A stretch of DNA of 64,000 bases, from the NCBI RefSeq assembly GCF_051903065.1, contig NZ_CP178438.1; one strand, given 5' to 3'. Made by a program: the position numbers and the translations under genes. Below are positions 56,053 through 56,100 of this stretch, one piece after another. This stretch comes from Escherichia coli (GTDB lineage Bacteria > Pseudomonadota > Gammaproteobacteria > Enterobacterales > Enterobacteriaceae). The notes beneath the pieces are model-generated. The model had not been told where the DNA came from, made no database searches, and saw only the letters and a program-made list of their open reading frames with translations. The number at the start of each line of letters is the position of its first letter. Positions within the stretch are counted from its first letter, which is position 1.

Positions 56053-56100
56053 TATCCCTTAATTGTGCATGCTGTTGCGACTATGCACAATTAAGGGATA
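56053..56100. repeat. 18-bp perfect inverted repeat in the panE-yajQ divergent intergenic region
   Basis: tatcccttaattgtgcat (56053-56070) and atgcacaattaagggata (56083-56100), 12-bp spacer. Confidence 0.7.

Follow-up and report, generated by a model that had tools for sequence, protein, structure and literature searches.

The window analysed here is a stretch of 64,000 nucleotides of Escherichia coli DNA, and the region of interest within it is the spacer between two divergent genes, panE (start codon 56010–56008, minus strand) and yajQ (ATG at 56178, plus strand). The preliminary description of this DNA had given the genes these names, which are correct, and the spacer matches that of E. 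coli K-12 MG1655 but for two SNPs (56120 and 56137), neither of which falls within the palindrome described here. Adding 388505 to a window position gives the position in NC_000913.3, a conversion that we checked by alignment. A repeat search finds two arms that are exact reverse complements over 18 nt (100% complementary), which bears out the perfect 18-bp inverted repeat with 12-bp spacing of that description; its estimate of ~80 bp for the distance to yajQ comes to 77 bp when measured from the end of the right arm to the ATG. The features of the locus are as follows.

Distal yajQ promoter, 55899–55911, plus strand: −10 TACAAT at 55899–55904 and start at 55911, within the panE coding region
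Small hairpin CACCCG-N9-CGGGTG, 56021–56041, minus strand: just 5′ of the Shine-Dalgarno sequence of panE and, within the panE leader, 3′ of the long stem
Lineage-specific insertion of ~62 bp, 56044–56105: carries the palindrome; delimited from spacer alignments
Left arm, 56053–56070: TATCCCTTAATTGTGCAT, which supplies the 5′ side of the stem in RNA of the yajQ sense and the 3′ side in RNA of the panE sense
Candidate palindrome promoter, 56063–56098, plus strand: TTGTGC at 56063–56068, a 17-nt spacer and CACAAT at 56086–56091, hexamers read from the sequence
Loop, 56071–56082: 12 nt, GCTGTTGCGACT, non-palindromic, with two additional G-C pairs predicted within it
Right arm, 56083–56100: ATGCACAATTAAGGGATA, from the repeat search
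Small G+C-rich hairpin GTCCTG-GTG-CAGGAC, 56102–56116: adjoins the long stem and is followed on the plus strand by TGTTGGTTATTT
Apparent proximal bidirectional promoter core, 56134–56153: TATTAT at 56140–56145 (plus strand) leading to the yajQ start at 56153, and CATAAT at 56146–56141 (minus strand) leading to a predicted panE start at 56134

When the 64-kb window was scanned for perfect inverted repeats with loops of at most 40 nt, the 18-bp palindrome was the longest and the runner-up measured 12 bp. The longest perfect inverted repeats in simulated windows (n = 30, order-1 Markov model) were 9–13 bp, and the analytic expectation for repeats of at least 18 bp is 4e-5 per window, or ~0.003 per 4.6-Mb genome. 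The palindrome, which the preliminary description had called unusual for an ordinary promoter, is real and not a product of chance.

The element is the RNase III-cleaved panE-yajQ hairpin that has already been published, at the same locus and with the same sequence. Gordon, Cameron & Pfleger (2017, mBio 8:e00128-17, PMC5371410) reported an RNase III-dependent RNA-seq signal at NC_000913.3 444573, described as 'intergenic panE-yajQ', and this position converts to window 56068, which is within the left arm and three bases from the loop. Their RNA-seq was unstranded, and the signal at 444573 carries no strand assignment (PMC5371410). When the panE-yajQ region was transcribed in vitro in both orientations, purified RNase III cleaved each of the RNAs, and the cuts, mapped by 5′ RACE, fell on the predicted hairpin, a long structure that according to the same authors is able to form on yajQ-sense and panE-sense RNAs alike (PMC5371410). 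The half-life of yajQ mRNA was ~6 min in the wild type versus ~3 min in an rnc mutant, no change was seen in the stability of panE, and it was suggested that yajQ is stabilised because the remaining 5′ hairpin slows RNase E (PMC5371410). In a later paper yajQ is counted with the targets that RNase III regulates positively by an unexplained mechanism. Nine of ten Gordon targets, panE-yajQ possibly among them, were re-detected in vivo by Altuvia et al. (2018).

The predicted structures agree with these results. On both strands the stem has 18 perfect pairs plus the two G-C pairs in the loop, the fold energy of the hairpin region is about −29 to −31 kcal/mol, and the palindrome stem dominates both the MFE and the centroid structures (z-scores −4.2 and −5.6). 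The helix of 18–20 bp has the length of an RNase III leader stem (~20–22 bp), at the lower end of that range; the minimal RNase III substrate is quoted as ~22 bp by Gordon 2017 (PMC5371410). An intrinsic terminator was considered and rejected: the 18-bp stem is A+T-rich, it is followed by CGUCC on the plus strand or GCCUUAUU on the minus strand with no U tract, and no gene ends here since the flanking genes diverge. The sole element flagged by a terminator pattern scan was the small G+C-rich hairpin at 56102–56116, which is terminator-like by pattern only. A cmscan of 55500–56700 against Rfam families (E-value ≤10) returned only a chance snoRNA hit elsewhere.

From published start sites, the hairpin is part of a yajQ message. 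A yajQ-sense start at 55911 (U00096.2 443640) is present in both Cappable-seq and Kim 2012, so that transcription of the stem into mRNA is found in two datasets, and the 267-nt yajQ leader that Kim et al. 2012 list for this start contains the hairpin. The preliminary description had proposed a structured element in either transcript, and this proposal is supported by a published RNase III stem-loop that lies within a mapped long yajQ leader. The start at 55911 lies 100 nt inside the panE ORF, and the transcript is antisense to the first 100 nt of panE. A second start, 56153, comes from Cappable-seq and also, at −25, from directed 5′ RACE, and a third, 56098 (U00096.2 443827), is found in Cappable-seq only and is listed neither in Kim 2012 nor by directed 5′ RACE. 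The starts at 56098 and 56153 are the two strongest for yajQ and both are downstream of the stem, and most yajQ mRNA may therefore never contain it.

For panE, Kim 2012 lists no start site in E. coli, but the start of the K. pneumoniae gene, there called apbA, was mapped by Kim et al. with the upstream sequence ...TTGCGTTGCATAATACCTGCA. Here a −10 CATAAT is followed by ACCTGC and then, 7 nt past the box, by +1 A, and CATAAT is the minus-strand face of the box GGTATTATGC, which is invariant in 29 aligned Enterobacteriaceae yajQ-panE spacers. By homology with this mapped start, the E. coli panE start is predicted at 56134. A start at 56134 would give a 124-nt panE leader that contains the hairpin, and thus the hairpin is probably within the panE leader too. 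The predicted leader folds into three hairpins, namely the small G+C-rich one, the 18-bp stem and the one close to the Shine-Dalgarno sequence (z = −5.2). The box GGTATTATGC looks like a shared-box bidirectional promoter with its starts, one mapped (56153) and one predicted (56134), 19 bp apart. A scan of the spacer with a sigma-70 pattern gave no match at default stringency, and we placed the promoters from the published start sites. We also considered a TATACT box as the ancestral panE promoter and rejected it, because the Klebsiella start is instead at the CATAAT face of the proximal box.

Across E. coli the element is nearly invariant. Of 5424 complete genomes, 5383 have the identical 48-mer that makes up the palindrome and 5326 the identical 74-mer around it; one variant that we examined has a change outside the arms (56102 G to A). 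In these 5,424 genomes the palindrome is single-copy, the two places reported by blastn (E-value ≤1) being one locus on both strands. It is identical in E. albertii as well, where the adjacent spacer differs at 5–6 positions. A search for other Escherichia, including E. fergusonii, returned cluster members that were all E. coli or Shigella; two extra contigs were found, one an E. coli with a miscalled start and one breaking at the palindrome.

Enterobacteriaceae spacers were gathered via YajQ and PanE homologs. The insertion is carried by E. coli, E. albertii and the C. freundii group (werkmanii, youngae, braakii and sp. FP75), and C. amalonaticus and C. farmeri have 8 unrelated bases in its place. 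The palindrome is absent from both of these and from Salmonella, Enterobacter, Leclercia, Lelliottia, Pseudescherichia and others, whose spacers are short (113–129 bp). Conservation in close relatives had been named in the preliminary description as the test of the palindrome. It does not vary in E. coli or E. albertii and is kept with compensation in the C. freundii group; Salmonella and most other Enterobacteriaceae lack it because it is located in a lineage-specific insertion. Our first MAFFT alignment had set the right arm against an ancestral AGTATAGCG motif, an artefact that was exposed by adding C. amalonaticus.

The Citrobacter carriers show which property of the stem is kept. Their stem has 23 pairs and is imperfect, and their loop of 13 nt is variable and is not conserved relative to E. 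coli. In carriers of the C. freundii group, 4–9 of 23 positions distinguish one arm from the other, and pairing is kept on one strand via G·U. Among nine distinct sequences from two clades, 89.8% of cells are paired in the panE sense, versus 32–52% with a slid partner. A fully compensatory change is seen at one pair, which is A-U in Escherichia and G-C in Citrobacter; several stem pairs cycle among U-A, U-G and C-G, and seven toggle between Watson-Crick and G·U. When we examined the transition-type positions that are not Watson-Crick, 8 of 9 were G·U in panE-sense RNA and C·A in yajQ-sense RNA. In agreement with this, the Citrobacter hairpins fold at −25 to −33 kcal/mol on the minus strand versus −7 to −21 kcal/mol on the plus strand. 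The covariation is modest: its score was reached by 6 of 500 shuffles, and there is one double-sided change among the nine sequences of two clades. Both C-to-T and A-to-G changes occur in Citrobacter on the panE-sense strand, and therefore a single mutational bias is no explanation for them. Pairing is thus conserved over sequence in these nine sequences, as in an RNase III stem, and the alignments argue for RNA-level selection on the panE-sense helix in the C. freundii group. The strand-asymmetric wobble argues for an RNA helix and against a protein operator.

From these results and the published cleavage, our main reading, to which we give a probability of about 0.8, is that the palindrome encodes an RNA stem-loop that is cleaved by RNase III and that belongs to the long yajQ leader and, probably, to that of panE as well. 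RNase III cleavage would remove the 5′ part of the long leaders and would leave a shorter, more stable yajQ message, and the same DNA would also supply a weak internal promoter with its start at 56098. In Escherichia the antisense yajQ leader is present too, with a stem that is purely Watson-Crick.

Only when all its pairs are Watson-Crick does the stem fold equally on both strands. It is possible, although we regard it as doubtful, that the perfect stem of Escherichia has been kept since the hairpin must fold both in an ancestral panE leader and in an Escherichia-specific antisense yajQ leader, with a 48-bp element that would couple RNase III processing to promoter competition at two divergent genes. 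The distal −10 box TACAAT is confined to E. coli and E. albertii. Every other genus has TGCAAT or TGCAGT instead, without the critical second-position A, and the difference is a synonymous one in a panE Cys codon (TGC to TGT). The antisense long yajQ leader looks Escherichia-specific from this comparison, and under a dual-strand constraint it would have been created when the panE codon changed synonymously from TGC to TGT. In Citrobacter only RNA of the panE sense would be present, and G·U pairs, which on the other strand would be C·A, would then be tolerated; the DNA may also hold a face-to-face promoter pair. As the reason for the perfect palindrome, the dual-strand constraint is attractive but unproven; if true, it would mean that one hairpin serves two antisense leaders.

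An improbable alternative to the RNase III stem-loop is that the element works mainly at the level of DNA, as a promoter in which TTGTGC-N17-CACAAT on both strands forms a face-to-face pair that competes for RNA polymerase, with the hairpin secondary. The palindrome itself probably does form a promoter, weak and internal and with its start at 56098 seen in one dataset: this Cappable-seq start is 7 nt past CACAAT, and its enrichment is similar to that of the other two yajQ starts. From the hexamers, a mirror-image −35/−10 pair on the minus strand, a putative promoter of panE, predicts a start near 56055. The stem positions that are invariant in nine of nine carriers cluster in ATTGT.C/G.ACAAT (−35 TTG, −10 ACAAT), so that ATTGT and ACAAT are unchanged in all palindrome carriers, and Citrobacter has TTGTTC-N18-TACAAT at the same place. 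However, a promoter has no need of 18 complementary bases or of compensatory and G·U changes outside the hexamers, the start at 56098 appears in neither Kim 2012 nor the directed 5′ RACE, and RNase III cleavage in the stem is documented experimentally (PMC5371410). A promoter role and an RNA role are compatible, not mutually exclusive.

We consider it unlikely, to a similar degree, that the RNase III substrate in vivo is an intermolecular duplex that the yajQ leader starting at 55911 forms with the panE mRNA starting at ~56134; the overlap would be ~224 bp long and the hairpin would be incidental. With the distal yajQ start 100 nt inside the panE coding region and the predicted panE start beyond the palindrome, each RNA would be the full complement of the other across the spacer; the published RNA-seq was unstranded, and its authors raise sense/antisense substrates for other sites (PMC5371410). 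But single transcripts of either orientation were cleaved in vitro with cuts that map to the predicted hairpin (PMC5371410), the in vivo signal at 56068 is inside the stem and is not spread over the overlap, and Citrobacter retains the hairpin without the distal yajQ −10 box.

The preliminary description had also suggested a dimeric regulator site. A transcription factor that binds the palindrome as a dimer or a dimer of dimers, and so regulates both divergent promoters, that of panE and that of yajQ, would account for perfect dyad symmetry within a divergent promoter region, with arm centres 30 bp apart, or about three helical turns, on the same face of the DNA. The sequence TGGTGCA at 56106–56112 resembles an NtrC half-site. 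An in vitro NtrC gSELEX peak of 41% intensity is located at U00096.2 443846 (~window 56117; PMC8743547), but the NtrC-like half-site is outside the palindrome and the peak is weak and low-resolution. A protein site would conserve its half-site sequence, whereas the arms of the C. freundii group differ from those of E. coli and from each other and nonetheless pair, with G·U on one strand. Moreover, the element is missing from Salmonella, Klebsiella-like and Enterobacter spacers despite conserved genes and a conserved proximal promoter, and no regulator binding site at the palindrome is named in the panE/yajQ literature examined. The suggested regulator site is unsupported, and we regard an operator as very improbable.

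Equally hard to credit is a functionless relic, that is, an insertion, a decayed mobile element or a template-switching inverted duplication: the element is a ~60-bp insertion relative to C. amalonaticus, Salmonella and other genera, in a spacer that is indel-prone in Kluyvera, a MAG and rare E. coli strains with IS elements, but it is single-copy in every E. coli genome, has no matches in phages or true plasmids (hits in the plasmid collection are chromosome-sized records only), is unchanged between E. coli and E. albertii although the spacer next to it has diverged, keeps its pairing in Citrobacter by compensatory and strand-specific wobble changes, and has documented biochemical activity (PMC5371410). 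A mobile or repeated-element origin was also rejected after blastn searches of E. coli genomes, plasmids and phages, with the 74-mer or the Citrobacter version as query, returned only the locus itself.

An RNase III stem-loop in a leader has well-known counterparts. The classical RNase III leaders (pnp, rnc, the adhE 5′ UTR and T7 R1.1-type sites) are likewise long, mostly perfect 5′ UTR stems that are cut by RNase III, and their cleavage changes the stability or translation of the downstream message. The effects in the adhE and T7 R1.1-type cases are positive, as for yajQ, whereas the pnp and rnc leaders destabilise their own mRNA and yajQ is stabilised instead. Unlike the classical leaders, the panE-yajQ stem is an exact DNA palindrome between divergent genes with overlapping leaders, and for this reason the same hairpin is possible in two opposite transcripts. 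REP/BIME and ERIC/IRU elements are also intergenic transcribed palindromes able to affect mRNA stability, but they are multi-copy families with a characteristic consensus and the panE-yajQ element is single-copy; a REP/BIME, ERIC or MITE-type repeat is ruled out by the absence of a second copy in 5,424 E. coli genomes.

Bidirectional promoters reportedly arise from DNA symmetry (Warman et al. 2021, Nat Microbiol). The likeness at this locus is in GGTATTATGC, which reads TATTAT on the plus strand and CATAAT on the minus strand and has its two starts separated by 19 bp, but this symmetry concerns the proximal promoter 40 bp away and not the 18-bp palindrome. The putative promoter pair of the palindrome would be convergent and overlapping, whereas Warman-type pairs are back-to-back.

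Relative to the site of Gordon 2017 (PMC5371410) the element is identical, and what we add is the strand-wise pairing signature, the phylogenetic distribution and the overlap with start sites. These new points are incremental: a lineage-restricted insertion, a strand-asymmetric wobble, an Escherichia-specific distal promoter and a start in the right arm. The element has little significance beyond its locus: its cleavage by RNase III is documented, and neither yajQ nor panE is a key regulator. It is a clean textbook-style case of a perfect palindrome in a divergent promoter region that is an RNA-level element and not an operator, and the strand-asymmetric G·U in Citrobacter is a simple indicator of which transcript is under selection.

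Several minor observations concern the spacer and its neighbours. Two E. coli strains (NZ_CP019256.1 and NZ_LT883142.1) have IS3-family insertions in the spacer, at about window 56061 and 56124. One of these (IS1203) is inside the left arm and destroys the palindrome, and the other is just downstream of the small hairpin; such IS-carrying strains are natural knock-outs that can be used for tests of function. A Kluyvera genome and a MAG have independent insertions of ~50 bp elsewhere in the same spacer, which is indel-prone given these independent insertions in other lineages. A short-read contig (Logan SRR9221469) stops exactly at the outer edge of the palindrome (…TTCAATAA), and the inverted repeat probably caused the assembly to break there.

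The box GGTATTATGC is in the loop of a short inverted repeat, GTTGCG...CGCAAC, in most genera. Also in most genera, the panE-sense strand has GCTATACT or GCTATAAT, a near-consensus −10 box. In the Citrobacter carriers this box (TATACT/TATAAT) is directly upstream of the hairpin, and in Escherichia the hairpin GTCCTG-GTG-CAGGAC takes the place of the conserved TATACT/TATAAT box. The small hairpin at 56021–56041 is conserved across most genera examined, and its arms are CACCCG/CGGGTG in Escherichia versus CACCTG/CAGGTG in most others, which is a compensatory change; in C. amalonaticus and C. farmeri the combination is G·U on the panE-sense strand only. In the panE leader this hairpin may act on translation or stability. 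At the other end of panE, ~38 nt of the 3′ end are shared with the start of yajL (window 55099–55142; MG1655 443604–443641), which is consistent with a panE-yajL operon.
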